From Saprospiraceae bacterium (lineage in GTDB: Bacteria; Bacteroidota; Bacteroidia; Chitinophagales; Saprospiraceae): DNA of 64,000 nt. Positions 8,801 to 42,845 of this stretch are shown in pieces (position 1 is the first letter of the stretch; every line of letters begins with the position of its first letter). The notes beneath the pieces were generated by a model. The model searched no databases. It worked only from the letters and a program-made list of their open reading frames with translations, and was not told the origin of the DNA. The stretch lies in the NCBI GenBank assembly GCA_031424515.1, contig JANPHO010000681.1, positions 189 to 64,188 on the forward strand, given 5' to 3'. The position numbers were made by a program, and so were the translations under genes.

Positions 8801-10016
8801 AAGGTCCCTTACCTACTGGTATATCTGCGATGACTGAATTTGTGCTTGCATTTATTACTGAAACGGAGTTAGATCGCTCACTCACCACGTACACATAAAC
8901 GAGGCTACCATCAGAACTAACGGATACCCCAGCAGGTTGGCTACCAACATTGATAGTCGATATTACCAAATTACTACTTGTATTGATAATAGATACTGAA
9001 TTACTGCCCAAATTAGCCACGTAAAGTCGGCTGCCATCGGGGCTTAGAGTCACACCATAAGGATTGTTACCTACTGAAGTGGTTGTAACAACTGTATTTG
9101 TAACAGTATTGATGATTGTAACATTAGCTGAGCCATTATTGGCTACGTAAACACGGCTACCATCAGGGCTTATGGTTACACCATATGGATTAGTACCTAC
9201 ATTTATTGTTGTAATGAGTGCGTTTGTGCTTGTATTGATAACTGAAATTGTGCCTGCAACGGCGTTGGCTACATAAAGTCGGCTGCCGTCGGGGCTTACT
9301 GTAACACCTGTGAGTCCTGATGTTAAAGTTACGGTTGAAATGAGTGCATTAGTACTTGTGTTGAAGACAGAGACCGTACCCGTTCCATTATTGAGAACAT
9401 AGAGACGAGTTCCATCTGGGCTCACGATTACTCCAGTAGGGAAAGTACCCACCGTCAGAGTTGCGCTAACCGTATTCGTAGCTGTGTTAATGACTGATAC
9501 TGTACCACCATCATAATTGGTTATATAAACTCGATTGCCATCCGGGCTCACTGTTACGCCAAGAGGGCTAGTTCCAACAGTTATAGTAGTTACTACTGTA
9601 TTCGTACTCGTATTGATAACAGAAACTGTATTATCACCGAAGTTGGGAATATATGCCAACTCAGTGCCAGGTATAAAAGGCGTTACTGTTATTGTGGCTG
9701 TAAGCGCTGTATTACCAGCGTTGGTTGCTGTGAATGAGGGAATATTGCCCGTGCCACTGGAGGCTAATCCAATTGACGGCGTATTATTTGTCCAGCTGTA
9801 GACTGTTCCTGGGGCTCCACCCGTAAAATTAACTGCTGCTGTGGCAGTTGCATTACAGACAACTTGATTGGAGATTGTATTGACCGTTGGCGGAACACAT
9901 TGGCCATAGGATTTAACACTTACCATCATACTAAGCAAGCAAGCTATTAAGCTTATTTGCTTTAAAAAAGTGTAGTTGATTCTTTTCAAAGGCAAATGAC
10001 AATAGTGGTTAGCCAT
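5844..10016 (-). CDS. Giant T9SS-secreted surface protein (YVTN beta-propeller repeats, Ig-like/HYR domains, dockerin-like EF-hand, Por C-terminal sorting domain)
   Basis: About 7 repeats of the VSVINTSTNxVxxTIxVGxxPxGVxxSPDGSRxYVxN type. HYR-like KPTISCPP...DNC modules. DVNRDGEVDGLDMILIRN. C-terminal NPF...GVYFYRL sorting domain. The start is taken at MANHY (10016); the track ORF extends to 10085. Confidence 0.8.
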   Translation of the reverse strand: MANHYCHLPLKRINYTFLKQISLIACLLSMMVSVKSYGQCVPPTVNTISNQVVCNATATAAVNFTGGAPGTVYSWTNNTPSIGLASSGTGNIPSFTATNAGNTALTATITVTPFIPGTELAYIPNFGDNTVSVINTSTNTVVTTITVGTSPLGVTVSPDGNRVYITNYDGGTVSVINTATNTVSATLTVGTFPTGVIVSPDGTRLYVLNNGTGTVSVFNTSTNALISTVTLTSGLTGVTVSPDGSRLYVANAVAGTISVINTSTNALITTINVGTNPYGVTISPDGSRVYVANNGSANVTIINTVTNTVVTTTSVGNNPYGVTLSPDGSRLYVANLGSNSVSIINTSSNLVISTINVGSQPAGVSVSSDGSLVYVYVVSERSNSVSVINASTNSVIADIPVGKGPFAFGNFIKPGLTPCKGTPKQFTITVNTKPTISSTASLLDNNTTGQCGKIITYNSSFTGAPTPTISYEFKGVTIATGSGNGSGSFFNVGTTNVILSATNSCGVGTHTFDITIKDTEKPTISCPPNQSITLGSFECSRPVIFTDPSVSDNCPDVNLKRMDLTTISSGVSLSPGIYNLKYRATDKAGNTADCGFTIQVNGQLSSSRLTCIPTLTVSLDERQCASILDGPSLLTNGVYYCPSFYNTTITGKTNSTFTSADIGKTFTVTVSDNFNNRCSTLVSVVDIKAPVLNAPLDAIISCADVSQDGRILTDLALPSVIYECSKTTFSFQDKIINLPVGQTSFNTRPDGFPAGKNFDFAAAYGSSKIIVRTYTATDESNNSSTIQRVIYVKNIELSQVECPKDVTVACVQGDFNTSIQSTGTPVIKNSRLVQDASCGIDYLFSDERVDNAQGYLIKRTWTFISRLNNQRQSCVQTITVNDTKPTLTCPASKTVTIGADKKVVVLASSVGTASDNCTPANALVWSITQGTSTNTSLTYICADLGNKAVQISVKDAAGNTSSCNTMIQVVDPSNFCVNIPLLAISGNINKETGENISATVKVFQSNSPMADMEGSSFQFNNLVQGNSYRVQPERDNDIYNGVTTFDIALISKHVLDIQPFTSPYQMIAADVNRDGEVDGLDMILIRNLVLRRITRFPNNNSWRFIPKNFIFKDSKNPFADDFPEALNYNNISTDINKADFIAVKVGDVNLNAKANVLALSTRTARPTENIYLVDKKMEAGKEYIVDLNINNSTLAALQLALKIDKTNVATFSVQEGNLPQFESGNFEVNQKQGIVGMAWVNTKREVFSNENSIIQLRITPRQSAWLHELVSLEEQNMENLSYDTEGVEKQLQLKFSNLKTDNVVFELHQNRPNPFMSETTISFNLPETNTAELSVYDINGKQIYNLNKVFTKGFNEVKLDNSVIKNTGVYFYRLQSDKFTAVKRMQYFTN

Positions 10017-10637
10017 CTTGTTTTTGCCTGGTACTTTGAAATGAGCTTGTTGTAGCTCATGGGATTGTGGTGCTTTCATAATCATTGTTTTATGTCTAAA
10101 TTGGGATTATATAAGTTGCAAAAGCAATGCTTACTTAAACTACTGTTCCTATCGATGTACGATGGATCAACAATAATTCAAATAAAAAATAGCTTGCATC
10201 CCTTTAACTGGTGCAAAATTATTTTATGATTAAAAGCTTTAAAACGGTGGTAAAGTGGGAAAGTATGTTCTATGCGATGTTTTATAATACAACAAATATA
10301 GGCATTTATATGTTACGGAGGCAACTATATTACTGAGGATACTAAAAAATTAACATAAATTACACGTAATTGAGTACTTAACATATTTTATATTTTTTAT
10401 ATAAATTAAATTCATTTTATTGTCTTCTGAATATTTTAAGCCTATTAAAAATACCCCCCCTCAGTAAACACCTATTTGTTTGCTTATGCAAGCATTGTTC
10501 TGTTTAGTGCACTTTTTTCACTTTATAATTTTCAAGAAGAAAAACCTTATTTCAGTTTGAAAACCGTATATTTCCTAAAGTATGATTACTTTTGACGAAT
10601 TAAATCTACATTTTAATCCATAATCATATCTTTTATA

Positions 10638-23426: not shown

Positions 23427-25289
23427 ATGAATAAAAGCGCGCGTATTTTTGTATTTTTCCTCTTATTTCTCCCATTTTATATCAAAAGTCAAGTCAAAAT
23501 TACGCTCGATAGAGCTACCGCTAACTATGCCGTTGGGGAATTGGCAGCTATCCGAATTGGTTCAAATACCTTTGGAAAAGGCAACTATGATATATATTTT
23601 GACCCCAAAAACAGTAATTCTACTATTAAAAAAGGGGAATTCACCATTCGGCAGGGGCAAAGTGATACGGTTATTCTGTTCACTATTTCATCGCCCGGAG
23701 TTGTCTTTTTAAAAGCATCGCAAAATAATGGACCTATCAATACGGTCACTATAGCATTCTCCCCCCTCAGTATCCAGCCTGCCGAGAAAGAACCTTCAGA
23801 CTTTGATGCCTTTTGGGCGCAACAAAAAAAAGGCTTGCAGAATATCGGGTTAAATCCTCAATTGACACTTCTTCGCACTTTGCCTAAAGGGTCAAAATTG
23901 TATTTATTGCAATTAAATAATGTGGATAACCGCAAAGTTTATGGCTATTTAGCTGTACCTTCCACGGCAGGAAAGCATCCTGCGGTGATTCAATTGCCTC
24001 CTTTTGGTGATGCACCAGTGGAAGCCAGTGAGTTTGTTTTGACGGATTTTGCGGAGCGTTGTAATGCCATCGCTTTACAACTGACAGTGCATAATGCGCC
24101 ACCTAATCAGACTGACCCCAATGCCTACAAACCCAGCAGTCTTTTAAAAGCGGAGGAATATTACAATAGATACATGATAACTGCCTGCTTGCAAGCGGCT
24201 GAATATTTGAGTAAAAGAACTGATTTTAATGGTAGCTTGGGTGTGTCGGGGAACAGCCAAGGCGCAGGCTTAGCGATGACTTTGGCGGGTTTGGATAGTC
24301 GGGTCTCGGCGGTAATTGCTGCAAATCCAGCTTCAAGTGACCAGCAGGCTTTTCGTTTTAATAAAGCCAGTGGTTTTCCAAGCTATGTGAAACAGGGTTT
24401 GGATTTAGGTTTGGATACCAATATCGTGAAAGCAACTTCCAAATACCATGATGTGGCTTATTTCGCTAAAAGATATAAAAATCCGCTTCTCGTTTTAAAC
24501 GGATATAAAGACGAAGTGACCCCTGCTGCATCGGTTTTTGCTGCTTTTAACCAATTTAAAGGCATGGGTGCGATGTTGCATGAGCGTGAAATAGGGCATG
24601 AATACACCATTGAATATTGGTTTGGTCGCTATGCTTTTTTCAAACAACATTTAGTGGGTTTTGAAAATCCATTCGATTTTAAGAAGTCTTTTGATATAAA
24701 AGCGGGTGAAAACCGCTTGAATGTGTCCACTGACACCGTTTTACTGAGGGGGGCGGTGTCTATTGACGGCGTCGTTAATGAAAGCGTTTCAGTGCGTTGG
24801 GAGAAGATGGAAGGCGTCGGTTCAGTCACTTTTGAAAAGCCTACACAGCGTCAAACCAGCGCCAAATTCAGTTTACCGGGTACTTATTTATTGCGCTTTT
24901 CAGCAACGTATGATTATAAAATCAACAGTACTGAACCCATGTTTTATACACTTTCCAATTATGTCTCAATTGAAATAAAGGATAAAACGGGTGGCAGTAC
25001 GCCCAAAGATACCGTCATTTCTGCCATTGAAAAAGAGAAAAGGCTATTACGCATTTCACCCAATCCGCATTCATCGGTGTTTCAAGTGGCTTGGGAACCG
25101 ATTTATAAGTACAAAACCATTCGCGTATATGATACAATCGGGCATTTGCACAATACAGTAAATGTACCAAGTGGGCAACTAAGTGCCAATATTTCAAATA
25201 CAAATTTGCCCGACGGCACTTATTTTGTTGAACTTGAAAATGTGAATGGGCGCAGGATTTCGATGAAAGTAGTGAAAAGTGAAAAGTAA
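23427..25289 (+). CDS. Acetylxylan esterase-like (CE7/AXE1) alpha/beta hydrolase with T9SS C-terminal sorting domain
   Basis: Signal peptide, nucleophile elbow GNSQGAG, an AXE1-like N-terminal region, and a C-terminal LRISPNP...GTYFVEL sorting domain. Confidence 0.6.
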   Translation: MNKSARIFVFFLLFLPFYIKSQVKITLDRATANYAVGELAAIRIGSNTFGKGNYDIYFDPKNSNSTIKKGEFTIRQGQSDTVILFTISSPGVVFLKASQNNGPINTVTIAFSPLSIQPAEKEPSDFDAFWAQQKKGLQNIGLNPQLTLLRTLPKGSKLYLLQLNNVDNRKVYGYLAVPSTAGKHPAVIQLPPFGDAPVEASEFVLTDFAERCNAIALQLTVHNAPPNQTDPNAYKPSSLLKAEEYYNRYMITACLQAAEYLSKRTDFNGSLGVSGNSQGAGLAMTLAGLDSRVSAVIAANPASSDQQAFRFNKASGFPSYVKQGLDLGLDTNIVKATSKYHDVAYFAKRYKNPLLVLNGYKDEVTPAASVFAAFNQFKGMGAMLHEREIGHEYTIEYWFGRYAFFKQHLVGFENPFDFKKSFDIKAGENRLNVSTDTVLLRGAVSIDGVVNESVSVRWEKMEGVGSVTFEKPTQRQTSAKFSLPGTYLLRFSATYDYKINSTEPMFYTLSNYVSIEIKDKTGGSTPKDTVISAIEKEKRLLRISPNPHSSVFQVAWEPIYKYKTIRVYDTIGHLHNTVNVPSGQLSANISNTNLPDGTYFVELENVNGRRISMKVVKSEK

Positions 25290-28661: not shown

Positions 28662-29243
28662 TTACAGTTTATCGATTATTTTTCTTCTGACTCTTGATAG
28701 TGAAGGAGGTTCAATTCCCAAATAGGAGGCTAAATACTTACTGGGCACTCTGTTGACAATATCAGAATCATTTTTCATTACAAGATTATATCTTTCTTCG
28801 GCGGATAAAGCACTGGACAATGCCAATCGTTCTTCAATATTCAAATACATTTTATGGGTAGCCAAAAGATGATAATAAGTGTAATTTGGATGATTTTTTA
28901 TCAAACTCATAAAACTCTCATAATCAATCGTAAGCAGTTCCGTATTTTCAAGGGTTTTTAAATAAAAATCGGTTGGTTTTTTATTCATAAAACTATTCAG
29001 ATCACCAACCCAACTCCCTTCCGTTAAAAAATTAATCACCCTTTCTTTATTATTGTATTTGCTGTAAAAAACCAGACACCCCTTTGACACAAAAGCTATA
29101 CAATCGCATATTTGACCTTTTTTGAAAATATATTTTTTAGCCTCTATTTTTTGAATTTTGAAAAAATTGGCTATATCATCAAATTCTGTATCTGTGATTT
29201 CTTTAGTATCGAGAATCTGCTTTTTTAATTTTAAAAATGACAT
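28662..29243 (-). CDS. Crp/Fnr family transcriptional regulator
   Basis: cNMP-binding beta-barrel region plus a C-terminal HTH (YLASYLGIEPPSLSRVRRK). 193 aa. Confidence 0.8.
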   Translation of the reverse strand: MSFLKLKKQILDTKEITDTEFDDIANFFKIQKIEAKKYIFKKGQICDCIAFVSKGCLVFYSKYNNKERVINFLTEGSWVGDLNSFMNKKPTDFYLKTLENTELLTIDYESFMSLIKNHPNYTYYHLLATHKMYLNIEERLALSSALSAEERYNLVMKNDSDIVNRVPSKYLASYLGIEPPSLSRVRRKIIDKL

Positions 29244-33896: not shown

Positions 33897-34973
33897 ATGT
33901 ATCTCATGAAACCATTAATAAGTCTTTTATATATTTTATTTGCCACTTTTTCACCCCTTTCTGCCCAAAACGGGATTGAACTCAAAAAGGAAATTGAAAA
34001 AGCCATGGTGTATGATTTGGTCATTGACACAGCGAAAATGACATGCTGGGTTATTGGCTGCATTGATCATGACTCGACATGGGTATTTGGATATGGACGG
34101 ACATCAAAACTCACTAAAACGGCTCCCGATGGCAATACTATTTTTGAAATTGGCGGCGTCACCAAAGCATTTACGTCCACGGTGGCTCAAATGATGGTGG
34201 AGCAAAAGATTTTGAATCAGGATTCTTCAATCAATCATTATCTCAAGTCTGCACAGCAATTTCCTTTAGGCAATACCCTTACTTTACTCCAATTAATGAC
34301 CCATACAAGTGGATTGCCCAAGCTGCCCGAAGCTTTTGGCATGGATGAAAAGGATAAAAATCAGCCTTATGCGTCTTATACTGAGGGGATGCTCTTTGAT
34401 TATTTAAAATCCGTGGATACAGCTGATTTGAGAATCGGGAAATACAATTATTCGCATATCAATCATGCCATTATTGAAAAAATAATAGCCAATAAGGGCG
34501 GTGAAAATAGTTTAAATAACATAGAAAAACGGTTTGACGATACGTCTTCTATATTCATTCAAGGCTATAACCCCGCGCAATTACCCGTTGCCAATTGGCG
34601 ATTCAATGAAACTTTTAAATATTCAGTAGGTATCAAAGCCACTATGAACGAATTATTGGATTTTATGAAACTCCAATTAGGCATAAAAGACACTTTTTTA
34701 TTTAAAATACTGAGGGGTACGCAAGAGCCACTTTTCAAAACGGATATTGATAAAAATACGTCGGTGGGTAAATCATGGCATATTTTAAAATATAAGAAAA
34801 AAATCATGATTTGCCTACAATCAGGCTCTACCAACGGGCAATCCACGTTCATTGCCTTCATTCCCGAAACCAAAACGGGCGTTGTGGTTATGGCTAATAC
34901 CCGCCTTGTGCAAGCCCCGCTGGGTATGCTCGTTTTAAAAATTCTGAACTATAATTGGCGGCGCGATGAGTAG
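33897..34973 (+). CDS. Beta-lactamase-fold (class C-like) protein lacking the nucleophile serine
   Basis: Signal peptide. FEIGGVTKAFT occupies the position where the family has S-x-x-K (GGC Gly codon at the Ser position). The rest has the serine hydrolase layout. Confidence 0.65.
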   Translation: MYLMKPLISLLYILFATFSPLSAQNGIELKKEIEKAMVYDLVIDTAKMTCWVIGCIDHDSTWVFGYGRTSKLTKTAPDGNTIFEIGGVTKAFTSTVAQMMVEQKILNQDSSINHYLKSAQQFPLGNTLTLLQLMTHTSGLPKLPEAFGMDEKDKNQPYASYTEGMLFDYLKSVDTADLRIGKYNYSHINHAIIEKIIANKGGENSLNNIEKRFDDTSSIFIQGYNPAQLPVANWRFNETFKYSVGIKATMNELLDFMKLQLGIKDTFLFKILRGTQEPLFKTDIDKNTSVGKSWHILKYKKKIMICLQSGSTNGQSTFIAFIPETKTGVVVMANTRLVQAPLGMLVLKILNYNWRRDE

Positions 34974-35103
34974 ATTTTAATTAAAAATGAGAAATGGATA
35001 ATTGAAAATTATTATAATTGTTAAAAAAGCGAGTTTTATACCACAAGAGTATGAAACTCGTTTTGTTTTAAATCTATTTCCAACTTATAAAAACATCTCA
35101 TCC

Positions 35104-36005
35104 ATGACATTCAAGCCCGCCTACTGGCATTTTATCTACATTTCAGCCCTCGTTTTACTTGGTTTTCAATATTATTCTAAGGCTACGCTTCTGAATAGGA
35201 CTTGTGAGTCTTTGAGTGGTATCAATCAGCAGTTACAAGATGATGCTGAGATAATAAGTACGTCTGCAGAAAGTATGAAATATGAAATTCGTAAAAAAAA
35301 GAGAGTAATCCTAAAAGATATCGTAGCTATTATTTAAAATCAGAGACAGCAGATACAGTTGTTAAGAATGCACTTGCGTACTTAAAGGAATGTAAAAATC
35401 AATTTAAAGCAACATCTTCTTTGGATAAAAATAAAATTCAAGAAATAAAGCAACATTTATCTAATTCGATGAATGCGTTAACTAATGTTGATGATTCAGT
35501 ACATAAAGGAGCAATCATTAAAAAGGGTCATTTAAAAATTTTTTTGGAAAATGAATCGTATTGGAAAAGGTTTATTAATCTCCCCTATGAAACTATTTTA
35601 ACAGAGTTTTTTAAAATTGAAAATATATTGTTGAATGATGAAAATATTTTTTTGAATTACACATTGGAGCGAGTTAGTCAAGAGATAGATTTAATATTCG
35701 ATAAATATAAAGTTGCTGTTGCACCTAAAAAAGCTGCTTTAATTGAAGGAGAATATTTTGAAAGCGATATTTATATTACTAAATATTCCTCTAATCCTAT
35801 GGAAATGTCAATTAGAGTTAATGGTATTGATTTGCCTTTAAAAGATGGAGTGGCTCATTATAAAAGTAAATTTCAATCTACGGGTAAAAAGAGTATTGAG
35901 GCAGTTGCTTCGATAAGAAACCTAATGACTGGTGAACATATTACAACAAAAGGTGAATTTGAATACGAAGTCCTACCTAAATGCAGTCGTGATTGTCAAC
36001 AGTAA
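35104..36005 (+). pseudogene. GldM/PorM-like paralog 1, split by a frameshift at the A8 tract (35293-35300)
   Basis: The N-terminal part (35104-35337) and the C-terminal part (open from 35295 to 36005) each align with paralogs 2 and 3. One extra A, or a -1 slip on A AAA AAG (35295-35301), restores a protein of about 300 aa. Confidence 0.7.
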
Positions 36006-36056
36006 TACCCCTCAGTATAAAACCATTTTTACTCAAAATTTCAAACCCACTTTAAC

Positions 36057-37013
36057 ATGAAATCTATTTCAAAGCATTTAATTTATATTCCAATTATTGC
36101 CTTTTTGGGGTTTCAATATTGGTCAAACAATTCTCTTTTGGAGAGGACTAGTGCGTCTTTGGGTGGTATCAATCAGCAATTTGAATTTGACGGTGAAATT
36201 ATACGGAGTTCGAATGAAATTTTAAAAGCCGAAATTGATAAAATGACTCAAGTAAATCCTAAAAGATATGAAAAGTACCAATCAAATGCAGATGGCTTGA
36301 TATGGCATACAAAAGAAGCAAGCAAACTACTGATTGAATTGAAAAAACAGTTTGTGGATTATTGCGGTGGTTGGGATACTGTGACTCATTGCCTAAAACA
36401 AGCCACAAATAGTTCGAAATCAGTTGATTTTTTCACTGATGACAGAAAAAATCAGATTAAAAATCAATTATCAACTATTTTAAATAGACTCTATATCGTT
36501 GATGAGTATGATAAGGAACTTGTTTTTAAGCACTATTCTGTGTCGAAGATTTTATACAATCAAAAATATTGGTCAGACCTCTCATCACTTACTCCGATGA
36601 GTGCTTTGACGGAGCTTTCAATGTTACAAAACCTCATAAAGTGCGACGAAACTGTTTATCTCAATTATGTATTGGATAAAGTTAGTCATGTTGATGTTAG
36701 ATTTGATGACTACAAAGTCGCTATTGCACCTCGAAAAGCGGTATTGATAGAGGGTGAAAGTTTTGAAAGTGATATTTATTTAACCCAATATGCCCGAACT
36801 TTACCAGAAGGGAGCACTATATCAGTGAATGGTGCTACTATCCCAATCGTGGATGGCATAGCACATTATAAAAGTCAACCTAATACAACTGGGAAGAAAG
36901 AGACTATTGCAACGATTACTATTAAGAATTCCGCAACTGGCGAAGCCAAGAGTTATATTGGTGGGTTTGAATATAACGTTCTGCCTAAATGTAGCCGTGA
37001 TTGTCAACAATAA
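36057..37013 (+). CDS. GldM/PorM-like paralog 2 (TM, GldM_N-like region, one Ig-like domain), LPKCSRDCQQ tail
   Basis: N-terminal TM with GFQYWS. LTPMSALTELSMLQNLIKCDETVYLNYVLDKV and FDDYKVAIAPRKAVLIEGESFESDIYL resemble the GldM core (FP..A....L...Q.D....E.. ; ...G....V.L). Confidence 0.45.
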   Translation: MKSISKHLIYIPIIAFLGFQYWSNNSLLERTSASLGGINQQFEFDGEIIRSSNEILKAEIDKMTQVNPKRYEKYQSNADGLIWHTKEASKLLIELKKQFVDYCGGWDTVTHCLKQATNSSKSVDFFTDDRKNQIKNQLSTILNRLYIVDEYDKELVFKHYSVSKILYNQKYWSDLSSLTPMSALTELSMLQNLIKCDETVYLNYVLDKVSHVDVRFDDYKVAIAPRKAVLIEGESFESDIYLTQYARTLPEGSTISVNGATIPIVDGIAHYKSQPNTTGKKETIATITIKNSATGEAKSYIGGFEYNVLPKCSRDCQQ

Positions 37014-37037
37014 AAACCTCTATTCACTTCAATTTTA

Positions 37038-38009
37038 ATGAAAATGAAACCCATTTATCAGCACAGTATTTATCTTTCAATTATACTTATTTTAGGATTT
37101 CAATATTGGTCAAAATTGCCCGTATTCGAAGCAACTCGTCTTTCATTTGGTCGCATTGATAAGCAATTGGAGGAAGATGGAAAGATGTTAATCTCGAATT
37201 GTGATACTTTTAAAAGTTTATTAGAATGGGTCAGTAATACGAACCCCAGTAAATATGCTGTTTATTCAAAAGAAGCCAATAGAACTGATAGTATTTGCTC
37301 TCTTGGCTATCAATATTTGGAAGTTTGCAAGTACGAATTTTTAAAACAGTGTAGCAAAGATAGTAGTATTGACATTTTAAAAATGCCTTCATCCAATTCT
37401 AAAACAGCAATATATTTCAATAATGATAAAATTAAAGAAATTAAAAATCAACTATTCAACGTGAAAAATGCCCTCTCTGATAATATTACAGATTCACTTG
37501 ACAGAGAACAACTGAAAAGGGTCTATAATTTATCTGATTTATTAAAAATTGAAAGTTATTGGGAGTACTTAAAATCTTTAGCCCCTATAAATGCATACAC
37601 AGAATTGACTAAAATTCAGAATTTCATTCTCAATGATGAAACTGCTTTTTTAAACTATTATGTTGATAAGATTGGTTGTTGCAGAGGCTGCTCTTTTTAT
37701 CCCCACTATTATAGAGCGAGCATTATCCCCACACGATTACCTATAATTGAAGGCGAATCTTTTGAAAGTGATATATACTTATCAAAATTGTTAAAAGACC
37801 CTTTAGTCTGTACATTTGAGGTAGATGGGAAACAAATGCCTGTAAAAAATGGAGTGGCTCATTTCGTAAGCATGCCTCAAACCATTGGTAAAAAGTCCAA
37901 TAAAATAACCGTAACGATGAAAAATCCTAAAAATGATAGTTTAATGACTTTAAATCGTGAATACGAATACGAAGTCCTACCCAAATGCAGCCGTGATTGT
38001 CAACAGTGA
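37038..38009 (+). CDS. GldM/PorM-like paralog 3, LPKCSRDCQQ tail
   Basis: Same architecture as paralog 2. The last 45 nt or so and the downstream CCCCTCAGTA are nearly identical to paralog 1. Confidence 0.45.
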   Translation: MKMKPIYQHSIYLSIILILGFQYWSKLPVFEATRLSFGRIDKQLEEDGKMLISNCDTFKSLLEWVSNTNPSKYAVYSKEANRTDSICSLGYQYLEVCKYEFLKQCSKDSSIDILKMPSSNSKTAIYFNNDKIKEIKNQLFNVKNALSDNITDSLDREQLKRVYNLSDLLKIESYWEYLKSLAPINAYTELTKIQNFILNDETAFLNYYVDKIGCCRGCSFYPHYYRASIIPTRLPIIEGESFESDIYLSKLLKDPLVCTFEVDGKQMPVKNGVAHFVSMPQTIGKKSNKITVTMKNPKNDSLMTLNREYEYEVLPKCSRDCQQ

Positions 38010-38131
38010 TACCCCTCAGTATTTTTTATATTTTTATTAAAAAGCACTAAATAATGCCCGCTCGTGGTTTAACTTTGCATACTTTTTACCAATTAATTCG
38101 GGCATTTTTAATAAAAAACTAAAAAATAAGT

Positions 38132-41465: not shown

Positions 41466-41755
41466 AGATTATAATATAATGTGTTCAAAAACATACTCAA
41501 TAAAAGTACCAATATTATTCAGTATAACAATTAAGCTTCAAAAATACAATTTTAATTTTAGTATATAATTTTTTATTTAAAATTATGTGACAGTATAACG
41601 TATTTTTATTGAAAATATAAATTTTTACATCTTCAATCTCGTTTGTTGATGATGCGTTTTTAGCGTTTTTATACTAAAAATAGTCTTTTTAATTGCATTT
41701 CAGATGCGGGTATTCTTACATTTGTACTCCTTTTCAATTTCTTAAAACTATTACT

Positions 41756-42259
41756 ATGAGCAACTTGACACCTAATGAGGAGAATATCGCTTCTCACATT
41801 TACATCATCAGAAATCAACGCGTCATGCTGGATAGCGATTTGGCTGAAATTTACGGCGTGGAAACCAAAATGCTTAAAAGAGCTGTTCGTCGTAACATTG
41901 AGCGTTTTCCAGAAGATTTTATGTTTGAACTTACCGATGAAGAGTTTCAAAACTTGAGGTTCCAATTTGGCACCTCAAGTTGGGGAGGCTCACGATATGC
42001 CCCTTTTGCTTTCACAGAGCACGGTGCTGTCATGTTAGCGAGCGTGTTGAACAGTGAAACTGCCGTAAAAGCCAGTATTTATGTAGTTCGGACTTTTGTT
42101 AAAATACGGCAACTGGTAAGCGGCTATCAAGAGCTTTCGGAGAGAATGAATACGCTTGAAAATAAATACGATGGTCAATTTGAACAAGTAATCCACGCTC
42201 TCGAGCAATTGGCAGAGCAGAAAAATGAACCGCGTACACGCATCGGTTTTAAAAAATAA
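41756..42259 (+). CDS. ORF6N (KilA-N-related) domain protein
   Basis: IYIIRNQRVMLDSDLAEIYGVETKMLKRAVRRNIERFPEDFMFELT...SRYAPFAFTEHGAVMLASVL matches the ORF6N pattern. The ATG at 41756 is preferred. Confidence 0.8.
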   Translation: MSNLTPNEENIASHIYIIRNQRVMLDSDLAEIYGVETKMLKRAVRRNIERFPEDFMFELTDEEFQNLRFQFGTSSWGGSRYAPFAFTEHGAVMLASVLNSETAVKASIYVVRTFVKIRQLVSGYQELSERMNTLENKYDGQFEQVIHALEQLAEQKNEPRTRIGFKK

Positions 42260-42266
42260 GATTAAA

Positions 42267-42845
42267 ATGGCTAAAAAAGTATCAAAAGCAACTGACCCAC
42301 GATTTGAGGTTTTGAAAATGCTCACCGTAGAGCAAAAAGATAAATTATTGTTGAAACTTTTCAGAAAAGACCCACTTTTAGTTGAAAAACTGGCATTTGA
42401 GTTTTTTGAAGATAAAAGCGATTTGGAAAAACGGCGGAATGATATTAAAATGGAAATCAGTAGTTATATCGCCCAAGGAGCCATTGGCTGGGATACACCG
42501 GGCGAGTTAATGATGCGGATGCGCAGCTTGAATGGGCGCATAACGGAACATGTCAAAATCACAAAAGATAAGTACAGCGAGGTAGAACTGACGATTTTAT
42601 TGCTCAATACCGCCTTTGAACGCTTTTGGAAAATGCTCAATGAAAAAATAAATAGAGCGGATACTTTTGCTGAGTACTGCATCAAAAGAACGCTTTTTAT
42701 TATAAAATGCTTGGATAAACTCCACGAGGATAATTATCTGGATTTTAAGGATGATTTGGATAAGTTGTTTCAATATTTACATACTTATAAAAAGACTGAA
42801 TACTACGCTAAAAGCAATAATATTCCTAAAAAGTTTGAATTTTAG
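42267..42845 (+). CDS. Hypothetical all-helical protein
   Basis: ORF with good coding look, starting 8 nt after the ORF6N stop. No motif recognised. Confidence 0.5.
   Translation: MAKKVSKATDPRFEVLKMLTVEQKDKLLLKLFRKDPLLVEKLAFEFFEDKSDLEKRRNDIKMEISSYIAQGAIGWDTPGELMMRMRSLNGRITEHVKITKDKYSEVELTILLLNTAFERFWKMLNEKINRADTFAEYCIKRTLFIIKCLDKLHEDNYLDFKDDLDKLFQYLHTYKKTEYYAKSNNIPKKFEF

Follow-up and report, generated by a model that had tools for sequence, protein, structure and literature searches.

The stretch of DNA analysed here (hereafter the window; 64,000 nt) belongs to contig JANPHO010000681.1 of a Saprospiraceae bacterium (assembly GCA_031424515.1; positions 189-64,188, forward strand) and carries, between positions 35104 and 38009, three plus-strand paralogous genes for proteins of ~300-323 amino acids each, which are short relatives of GldM/PorM, the periplasm-spanning rotor of the proton-driven GldLM/PorLM motor of the gliding and type IX secretion machinery (TIGR03517; Pfam GldM_1st-4th; PDB 6EY4, 7CMG and 6YS8). 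Every copy is built from a transmembrane (TM) helix, a GldM-like helical domain (D1), one immunoglobulin (Ig)-like domain (D2) and the terminal stretch LPKCSRDCQQ. A first-pass annotation of this DNA had described three adjacent paralogs of about 300 residues with the first one split, and both the calls of open reading frames (ORFs) and a hidden Markov model (HMM) of the family bear this out, the latter supporting paralogy with E-values of 1e-98 to 1e-144, far above chance; copies 2 and 3 are 38% identical. The peptide strings quoted in that annotation are found in copy 3. Its identical ending holds for all three proteins as VLPKCSRDCQQ, the residues leading into it being EYEV in copies 1 and 3 and EYNV in copy 2, and its GFQYW motif of the TM helix is present in copies 2 and 3, copy 1 having GFQYY instead. 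Gaps of only 51 and 24 nt separate the three genes, which are probably co-transcribed. The hairpin terminator of the upstream beta-lactamase-family gene delimits on the left both the transcription unit of the array and the DNA similarity to relatives, BLASTN alignments to the homologous loci L009 and L023 starting at 35074 and 35077 (L and P numbers denote here loci and proteins compared with the window). Neither ahead of the array nor inside it was a Bacteroidetes -7 box (TAnnTTTG) found, and a sigma-70 scan stayed at background level.

The GldM ancestry of the three proteins is solid. All of them score above the gathering cutoff (24.4 bits) of Pfam GldM_2nd (D2, PF21601), with 42.4, 25.8 and 44.4 bits, and GldM_1st (D1, PF12081) matches with 18 and 24.1 bits, just under its cutoff of 25; the presence of D1 is established by its alignment with canonical GldM inside a match of E 2e-35 (see below) and by Foldseek matches to the motor structures 6ys8 and the 7sa entries. 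In the match to the GldM/PorM model TIGR03517, copy 2 covers profile positions 39-321 of 524 with its residues 38-310 at 54.9 bits, and the copy 1 fragment reaches 26 bits, both short of the equivalog cutoff of 180; copy 3 has no match to this model. Neither D3 (PF21602) nor D4 (PF12080) was detected in the three proteins, which stop 10 residues past D2. In the AlphaFold2 monomer model of copy 2 (predicted local distance difference test, pLDDT, 80.5) helices span residues 5-210, the long N-terminal TM helix running on into the D1 helical bundle to about residue 210, and are followed by a beta-sandwich (221-309) and a disordered 9-residue tail. A Foldseek search of the PDB with this model returned PorM 7cmg as the best match (E 4e-10, query TM-score, TMq, 0.62), then GldM 6ey4 and 7sb2, then structures of the GldLM/PorLM motors. 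Thus, the resemblance to GldM/PorM put forward in the first-pass annotation is significant by profile and by structure comparison alike. A profile search of PDB sequences also recovered PorM and GldM; a profile of D2 plus tail retrieved there no GldM/PorM, only weak Big_2-like LigA matches.

When 1.84 billion representatives were searched exhaustively with the family profile, canonical GldMs (~505-550 amino acids) appeared with E-values up to 2e-49, always matching profile positions ~30 to 309-310 and never the tail. The best canonical match, P0051 (516 amino acids), is 30% identical to copy 2 (P0001; E 2e-35, residues 38-308 to 38-321), and the alignment stops at ...FEYEV/I, which is residue 321 of P0051. 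Past this residue the canonical proteins continue with GERSV... into D3 and the short ones finish with LPKCxxxC. The D2/D3 boundary of GldM has been placed at residues 320/321 (Leone et al. 2018, PMC5790014); therefore, as homology ends exactly at this boundary, the three proteins are truncated GldM paralogs of TM-D1-D2 content. P0051 is encoded in a porP-gldK-gldL-gldM-gldN operon (locus L018) and carries all four GldM Pfam domains, so the contrast with a canonical four-domain GldM of about 510 residues, also drawn in the earlier annotation, stands. The window proteins are members of a family of half-length GldM paralogs whose nearest relatives are the four-domain GldMs of gldKLMN operons; below the equivalog cutoff, without D3 and D4 and outside the operon, the family does not belong to GldM/PorM proper, yet it is clearly derived from GldM. 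A reading of the tail as a D4 remnant left by internal deletion, suggested by a MAFFT alignment that set KCSRDC under AKCPGD of canonical D4, was rejected because the match is too short.

Table 1. Position of the array, its parts and other features of the window.
Feature	Position	Strand	Remarks
Hairpin terminator of the upstream beta-lactamase-family gene	35026-35064	+	16-bp stem, then T-run
Copy 1	35104-36005	+	~300 amino acids if read through; 1-nt frameshift; GldM_2nd E 2.5e-11
Copy 1, ORF pieces	35104-35337 (frame 1); (35301)-36005 (-1 frame)	+	ORF calls
A8 tract	35293-35300	+	Site of the 1-nt frameshift of copy 1
Slippery heptamer A_AAA_AAG	35295-35301	+	A8 plus the next G; downstream frame -1
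CCCCTCAGTA	36008-36017	+	2 nt past the stop codon of copy 1
Copy 2	36057-37013	+	Intact, 318 amino acids
Copy 2, TM helix	~36069-36128	+	
Copy 2, D1	~36129-36692	+	
Copy 2, D2	~36693-36983	+	
Copy 2, tail	36981-37010	+	LPKCSRDCQQ
Copy 3	37038-38009	+	Intact, 323 amino acids (321 with the start at 37044); P0007 is the same protein
Copy 3, GCCRGC cluster	37677-37691		D1-D2 junction
CCCCTCAGTA	38012-38021	+	2 nt past the stop codon of copy 3
Two Por_Secre_tail proteins, one with beta-propeller, HYR and dockerin-like domains, one AXE1-family esterase	5844-10085; 23427-25289	-; +	
ORF6N-domain anti-repressor-like protein	41693-42259	+	PADLOC candidate defence family PDC-S05, E 1e-57; phage anti-repressor PHROGs
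ORF overlapping the ORF6N gene	42225-42845	+	No family match

No other element of the family is conserved as well as the P-K-C-x3-C tail. A word-indexed search of 5.8 billion proteins returned 13 relatives only, all of them with P-K-C-S-R-D-C even at 27% identity, and the exhaustive search yielded 54 clusters (50% identity) that carry [PS]xCxxxC, always as C-x3-C followed by 1-6 residues and in 49 of the 54 with PK before the first Cys. Information content, computed over 44 family representatives, is highest in the tail (3.59 bits) and decreases through the N-terminus plus TM helix (2.72), D2 (2.20) and D1 (1.39), which agrees with the earlier impression of conserved ends around a diverged middle and shows that the tail is retained in homologues from other genomes. 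The tail cysteines lie 4 and 8 residues past the last D2 strand, and the proportion of non-synonymous differences (pN) in the tail is 0 between the window and its L009 orthologues. Copy 3 alone has a Cys cluster at the D1-D2 junction, and 7 more cysteines of this protein lie outside both cluster and tail; just downstream of the cluster, at 37701-37720, copy 3 shows several differences from a related strain (sequencing run X3).

The N-terminus with the TM helix is the second most conserved region. Canonical GldM N-termini, checked on PDB chains, read ...PRQKMINLMYLV..., and both MAFFT and HMMER place Lys2, His7 and Tyr10 of the family in register with Arg9, Asn14 and Tyr17 of GldM; the remainder of the PRQKMINLMYLV motif is not retained, and the helix is followed by an insertion. 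His7 is invariant and Tyr10 near-invariant in the family. In GldM, Tyr17 is invariant and Arg9 highly conserved, both being important for the motor, and residues 1-225 are enough to form a 5:2 complex with GldL (bioRxiv 10.1101/2020.05.11.089193; 10.1101/2022.01.28.478170).

The family is rare, and all genomes found to carry it are Saprospiraceae. A scan of 185,579 species (one genome each) disclosed 8 loci, all in Saprospiraceae metagenome-assembled genomes, a count that is a lower bound because only two peptide patterns were used; a scan of metagenome contigs added one weak locus and no further contexts. The genomic surroundings are unrelated to one another and include an allantoicase and a metal-efflux pump, HflX and a C39-ABC transporter, a methyltransferase, a polysaccharide synthase and a caspase-like protease, or a DUF1016 nuclease-family gene. 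As had been noticed before, the array lies away from any gldKLMN context: there is no gldK/L/N-like gene anywhere in the 64-kb window, nor in 12 other distinct loci. We also considered a split GldM whose D3-D4 would be encoded separately beside the arrays, and discarded it, as the candidate genes (gene 5 after the L016 array and a 127-residue gene after those of L010/L002) are unrelated.

Tandem arrays comprise 2-5 genes, three in L009, L010/L012-14 and L005 and four in L016, solo genes being found elsewhere; at homologous loci copy number varies from 1 to 5. L009 keeps the three orthologues downstream of the same beta-lactamase-family gene, and the ratios of non-synonymous to synonymous substitution rates (dN/dS) between the window and this locus are 0.37, 0.28 and 0.41 for copies 1, 2 and 3, one A having been added to the tract of copy 1 for that calculation only; the short GldM genes are under purifying selection. 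The proportion of synonymous differences (pS) is 0.18-0.43 across the array versus 0.71 (pN 0.17) in the flanking beta-lactamase-family gene, the single comparable flanking gene, and DNA identity is 85% in the array and ~68% in the flanks, array similarity ending at 38025. These flanks are homologous but rearranged (window 28662-29243, minus strand, and 33897-34973, plus strand, versus L009 336-944 and 2018-3094), and the downstream side holds lysA in the window and Uma2, Mur ligase and PorP/SprF-SprB genes in L009. Sequence comparison shows mosaic alleles as well. P0008 is 92-100% identical to copy 1 in TM helix and D1 and only 33-58% in D2, which resembles instead the L009 allele (74-88%), and P0005 joins a copy-2 N-terminus (89%) to a copy-1-type body (95% in D2). 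Strain L023 has one gene in place of three, 94.7% identical to copy 1 over the first 600 nt, with a D2 unrelated at the DNA level, a conserved tail and, after the gene, the same lysA-side flank as the window (87% identity). Judging from these alleles, the locus changes fast, with variable copy number and genes that recombine frequently between strains, and the description of a diversifying array in the first-pass annotation was apt. Copies 1 and 3, reported there as nearly identical over their final ~45 nt, differ at 3 positions, L009 copy 1 being identical to window copy 3 over the same segment; in the last 15 codons pS is 0.375 for copies 1 and 3, compared with 0.63 mid-gene and 0.75-0.875 for pairs with copy 2. 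Gene conversion between copies 1 and 3 at their 3' ends thereby receives modest support from the sequences.

Gene conversion had also been read from a word shared downstream of copies 1 and 3, and this part of the argument fails. The word, CCCCTCAGTA, is by far the commonest 10-mer of the window, with 49 exact copies (27 on the plus and 22 on the minus strand) against ~0.09 expected from a third-order Markov model that is itself inflated by the word; being a genome-wide motif rather than a locus-specific one, it is no evidence for conversion, and low pS in the last 15 codons and the mosaic alleles are what supports recombination. Copies stand, for example, at 1655, 44418, 47820 and 62784, besides those at 36008 and 38012 in Table 1; in all, 34 are coding, in several reading frames, and 15 intergenic. 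It is also present in L001-L007, L009-L018, L023 and L024 and absent from L008, with similar density in the majority of distant Saprospiraceae loci (26 in 21 kb of L002, 17 in 17 kb of L010), and one metagenome contig bears two inverted copies 12 nt apart. Within 25 nt past the stop codon it follows, in either orientation, 15 of 27 family genes and 4 of 111 other genes of the same loci (Fisher p ~1e-9, inflated by the shared ancestry of family genes). Such copies stand, besides the two of the window, at 5013, 5951 and 6879 of L005, 4120 and 6128 of L009, 7540 of L015, 8882 and 11670 of L016 and 3129 of L023, and P0004 (L024), which has lost its stop codon, includes the translated word in its tail (...DCTPLSKK). 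No bacterial mention of it was found in the literature searched. By analogy, its density of ~1 per 1.3 kb resembles that of DNA uptake sequences or repetitive extragenic palindromic (REP)-like elements, and the word may serve throughout the family as a signal for DNA uptake or recombination. An apparent polarity switch near 35 kb, seen with a 14-mer allowing up to 2 mismatches, vanished with the exact 10-mer, whose two orientations are intermixed.

Copy 1 has intact 300-residue orthologues in L009, in L023 and in P0006. At its frameshift site the zero frame reads CGT AAA AAA AAG, and the frames translate as EIRKKKRVIL... and ESNPKRY.... Tract lengths, taken from assembled contigs only, are A8 (frame off) in the source run X1 at depth 8.5, A9 (frame on) in the related strain of run X3, and A7CA, in frame, in L023. 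Comparison of these alleles suggests that copy 1 is off here through A9-to-A8 slippage, the A9 allele coming from one contig of low depth (2.1). Given the A_AAA_AAG heptamer and the continuing -1 frame, a -1 ribosomal or transcriptional slip would restore the product of the A9 allele, from which we infer that residual expression of copy 1 may persist by slippage.

The explanation that we consider best overall, although tentatively and at somewhat less than an even chance, is that these proteins form disulfide-capped short GldM-like dimers which possibly dock a GldL-type stator and would not reach the GldK/N ring. They would adopt the N-in, C-out topology of GldM, with a D2 swapping strands in a dimer as reported for GldM/PorM (PMC5790014), and the tail cysteines would then occupy the place at which the canonical chain enters D3 along the dimer axis, so that inter-chain disulfides could lock the tip of the short dimer and replace the dimer contacts lost with D3-D4. 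That the periplasm-facing dimers are capped in this way seems to us evenly poised between yes and no. An engineered Cys at Met-325 of PorM, just past D2, cross-links the protomers in vivo (PMC5790014), and the tail cysteines of the family are close to that position. A separate class of short GldM-like lipoproteins ends with ...EVGERCY, this Cys being the sole one of the mature protein in some members (P0127, P0145), which leaves no partner for intrachain pairing and makes it either intermolecular or free. In PorG, likewise, an essential disulfide joins Cys232, four residues from the C-terminus, to PorK (bioRxiv 10.1101/2025.03.18.644022). Docking of the conserved TM helix, through Lys2, His7 and Tyr10, into a GldL-type stator ring is a possibility that we regard as doubtful; conservation of the helix hints at a specific in-membrane partner, for which a GldL-type ring would be the obvious candidate because GldM(1-225) suffices to assemble with GldL. 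PorM D4 suffices to bind PorN, and for PorK D2-D3 are needed in addition to D4 (PMC5790014); lacking D4, and with it the PorN-binding tip, the short proteins would be unable to engage the GldK/N ring or serve as canonical shafts. Their role would then be that of alternative short rotors, or of competitors or modulators of the motor, and not that of shafts for secretion or gliding.

Several observations weigh against this proposal. The CxxxC motif could equally close a loop within one chain, coordinate a metal or attach to a different protein, and some paralogs have lost one or both tail cysteines (SKHSRDIE, PKYDFGC). The TM helix bears an aromatic belt, FQYW, typical of lipid-exposed helices, 6-7 residues are inserted between it and the first D1 helix relative to canonical GldM, Arg9 and Asn14 of GldM are replaced by Lys and His, and a basic position 2 is also what the generic positive-inside rule would predict. 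No gld gene, gldL included, and no recurrent neighbour was found in 13 distinct contexts (the window and 12 loci), and a simple motor subunit would not be expected to have D1 and D2 domains evolving fast and in mosaic fashion. Some of these features would suit periplasmic adaptors or tethers independent of GldL, anchored by a lipid-exposed TM helix, with D2 (perhaps D1 too) binding clients such as the C-terminal domains of type IX secretion system (T9SS) cargo and the Cys tail linking another protein or a metal. PorM D2-D3 does bind the C-terminal domains of T9SS effectors (bioRxiv 10.1101/483123), the window codes for T9SS cargo, both the aromatic belt and the TM-D1 insertion are unlike the caged GldM helix, PorG offers a functional intermolecular disulfide made by a C-terminal Cys, and variable D1/D2 surfaces between constant ends suit adaptors of differing specificity. 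Nonetheless, high conservation of the TM helix, with His7 and Tyr10 in register with functional residues of GldM, is unexpected for a plain anchor, the cargo binding of PorM maps to D2-D3 jointly and not to D2 alone, and no candidate partner is encoded nearby; we hold the adaptor function to be rather unlikely.

The mutability of the locus could instead be its purpose, the short GldMs being switchable decoys or blockers that would, for instance, poison or mask the gliding/T9SS motor or the surface it presents to the periplasm, allow escape from phages or toxins dependent on it, and vary by recombination, copy number and poly-A slippage. Such a contingency or arms-race locus would account for the differences in copy number among homologous loci, the mosaic P0008 and P0005, the lower pS of the array than of its flank, the A8 and A9 alleles on a slippery heptamer, the fairly high dN/dS and the enrichment of CCCCTCAGTA past family-gene stops. 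The flank comparison is however that of one gene and the A9 allele that of one low-depth contig, dN/dS is below 1 wherever measured, the proteins are periplasmic rather than surface-exposed and the arrays have no flanking toxin, phage or mobile-element genes. PADLOC and PHROGs gave no credible match for the three proteins, and a viral fold library returned generic Ig-domain matches only (TMq at most 0.25), with no viral structural counterpart. We consider this possibility improbable. That the genes are decaying, non-functional gldM duplicates, i.e. truncated pseudogene remnants, might be suspected from the frameshift of copy 1 and from the cysteines lost in some paralogs elsewhere, but it is hardly credible. 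Dozens of lineages, down to 27% identity, keep open frames in which tail and TM motif do not vary, dN/dS is 0.28-0.41, orthologues show no non-synonymous change in the tail and the three-gene array is kept in L009 though the flanking gene is near synonymous saturation, conservation data that effectively refute such a reading. Returning to the disulfide-capped dimers, it is tempting to speculate, at a low probability, that GldL is a general motor taking interchangeable rotors, into which the short GldMs plug as stub rotors with a disulfide-locked tip, providing a second periplasmic output or a clutch off the GldK/N ring and placing gliding/T9SS under contingency control by cassette exchange, mosaic D1/D2 surfaces and poly-A tracts. 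If true, such control might for instance let the cell escape phages to which T9SS-dependent surface proteins are indispensable.

Like GldM/PorM, the family has one TM helix at the N-terminus, on which the alignments put a basic residue and a Tyr in the R9/Y17 register, and homologous D1 and D2; it departs from GldM/PorM in the PKCxxxC tail in place of D3-D4, in the changes of the helix and its junction detailed above, and in its multicopy tandem arrays with mosaic alleles lacking gldK/L/N neighbours. The closest parallels in domain content are laboratory constructs, GldM' (residues 1-225, D1 only) and GldM'' (through D2), made for cryo-electron microscopy (cryo-EM) of GldLM. GldM'' has the same TM-D1-D2 content and such truncations still assemble with GldL as a 5:2 complex, but the natural family has a diverged TM helix and junction, a dedicated Cys tail and an evolutionary history of its own. 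PorG (...TFCNKQ-COOH), disulfide-bonded to Cys356 of PorK in the P. gingivalis T9SS, resembles the short GldMs in its conserved Cys near the C-terminus and differs in being a non-homologous outer-membrane beta-barrel with one Cys rather than CxxxC and a known partner. The literature searched holds no description of natural short GldM paralogs, 'truncated GldM' referring there to cryo-EM constructs. GldLM is one of few known ion-driven rotary motors, and GldM has been treated as a single conserved four-domain shaft; the retention of its membrane-proximal half with an added Cys tail, in arrays that recombine, suggests that the motor, or at least the rotor fold, has been adapted to a task other than reaching the outer-membrane ring. 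As natural equivalents of the cryo-EM truncations, these proteins could serve to test the determinants of GldL docking, the competition between short and full-length rotors and the effect of a disulfide at the D2 tip.

Other short proteins restricted to D1-D2 (P0060, P0064, P0106, P0127 and others) fall into further classes, likewise undescribed in the literature searched. Class B proteins (~305-313 amino acids) start with MKKLFSNPRFLHxFY, which includes an FLHxFY TM helix, and end exactly at ...EVLPK. Those of class C (295-358 amino acids), to which the single-Cys lipoproteins mentioned above belong, are lipoprotein-like and end after D2, often with a single penultimate Cys. Both share D1-D2-only content with the family, and class C also the tandem arrangement (at least two genes in L008, at 3-1622) and the recurrence of a Cys directly past D2; they differ from it in that class B has no tail cysteines and class C has a lipoprotein signal for the TM helix and keeps the canonical GER linker.

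As neighbours of the array, the window encodes a GT87-family protein, a weak GT2-like protein, the beta-lactamase-family hydrolase, LysA, a histidine phosphatase and a histidine kinase. Both Por_Secre_tail proteins, which carry the T9SS C-terminal sorting domain, are large and secreted, and with two such cargo proteins a canonical T9SS is presumably encoded elsewhere in the genome. Farther downstream of the array, the gene of the ORF6N-domain anti-repressor-like protein and the ORF overlapping it (Table 1) may constitute a small mobile or defence-related module.

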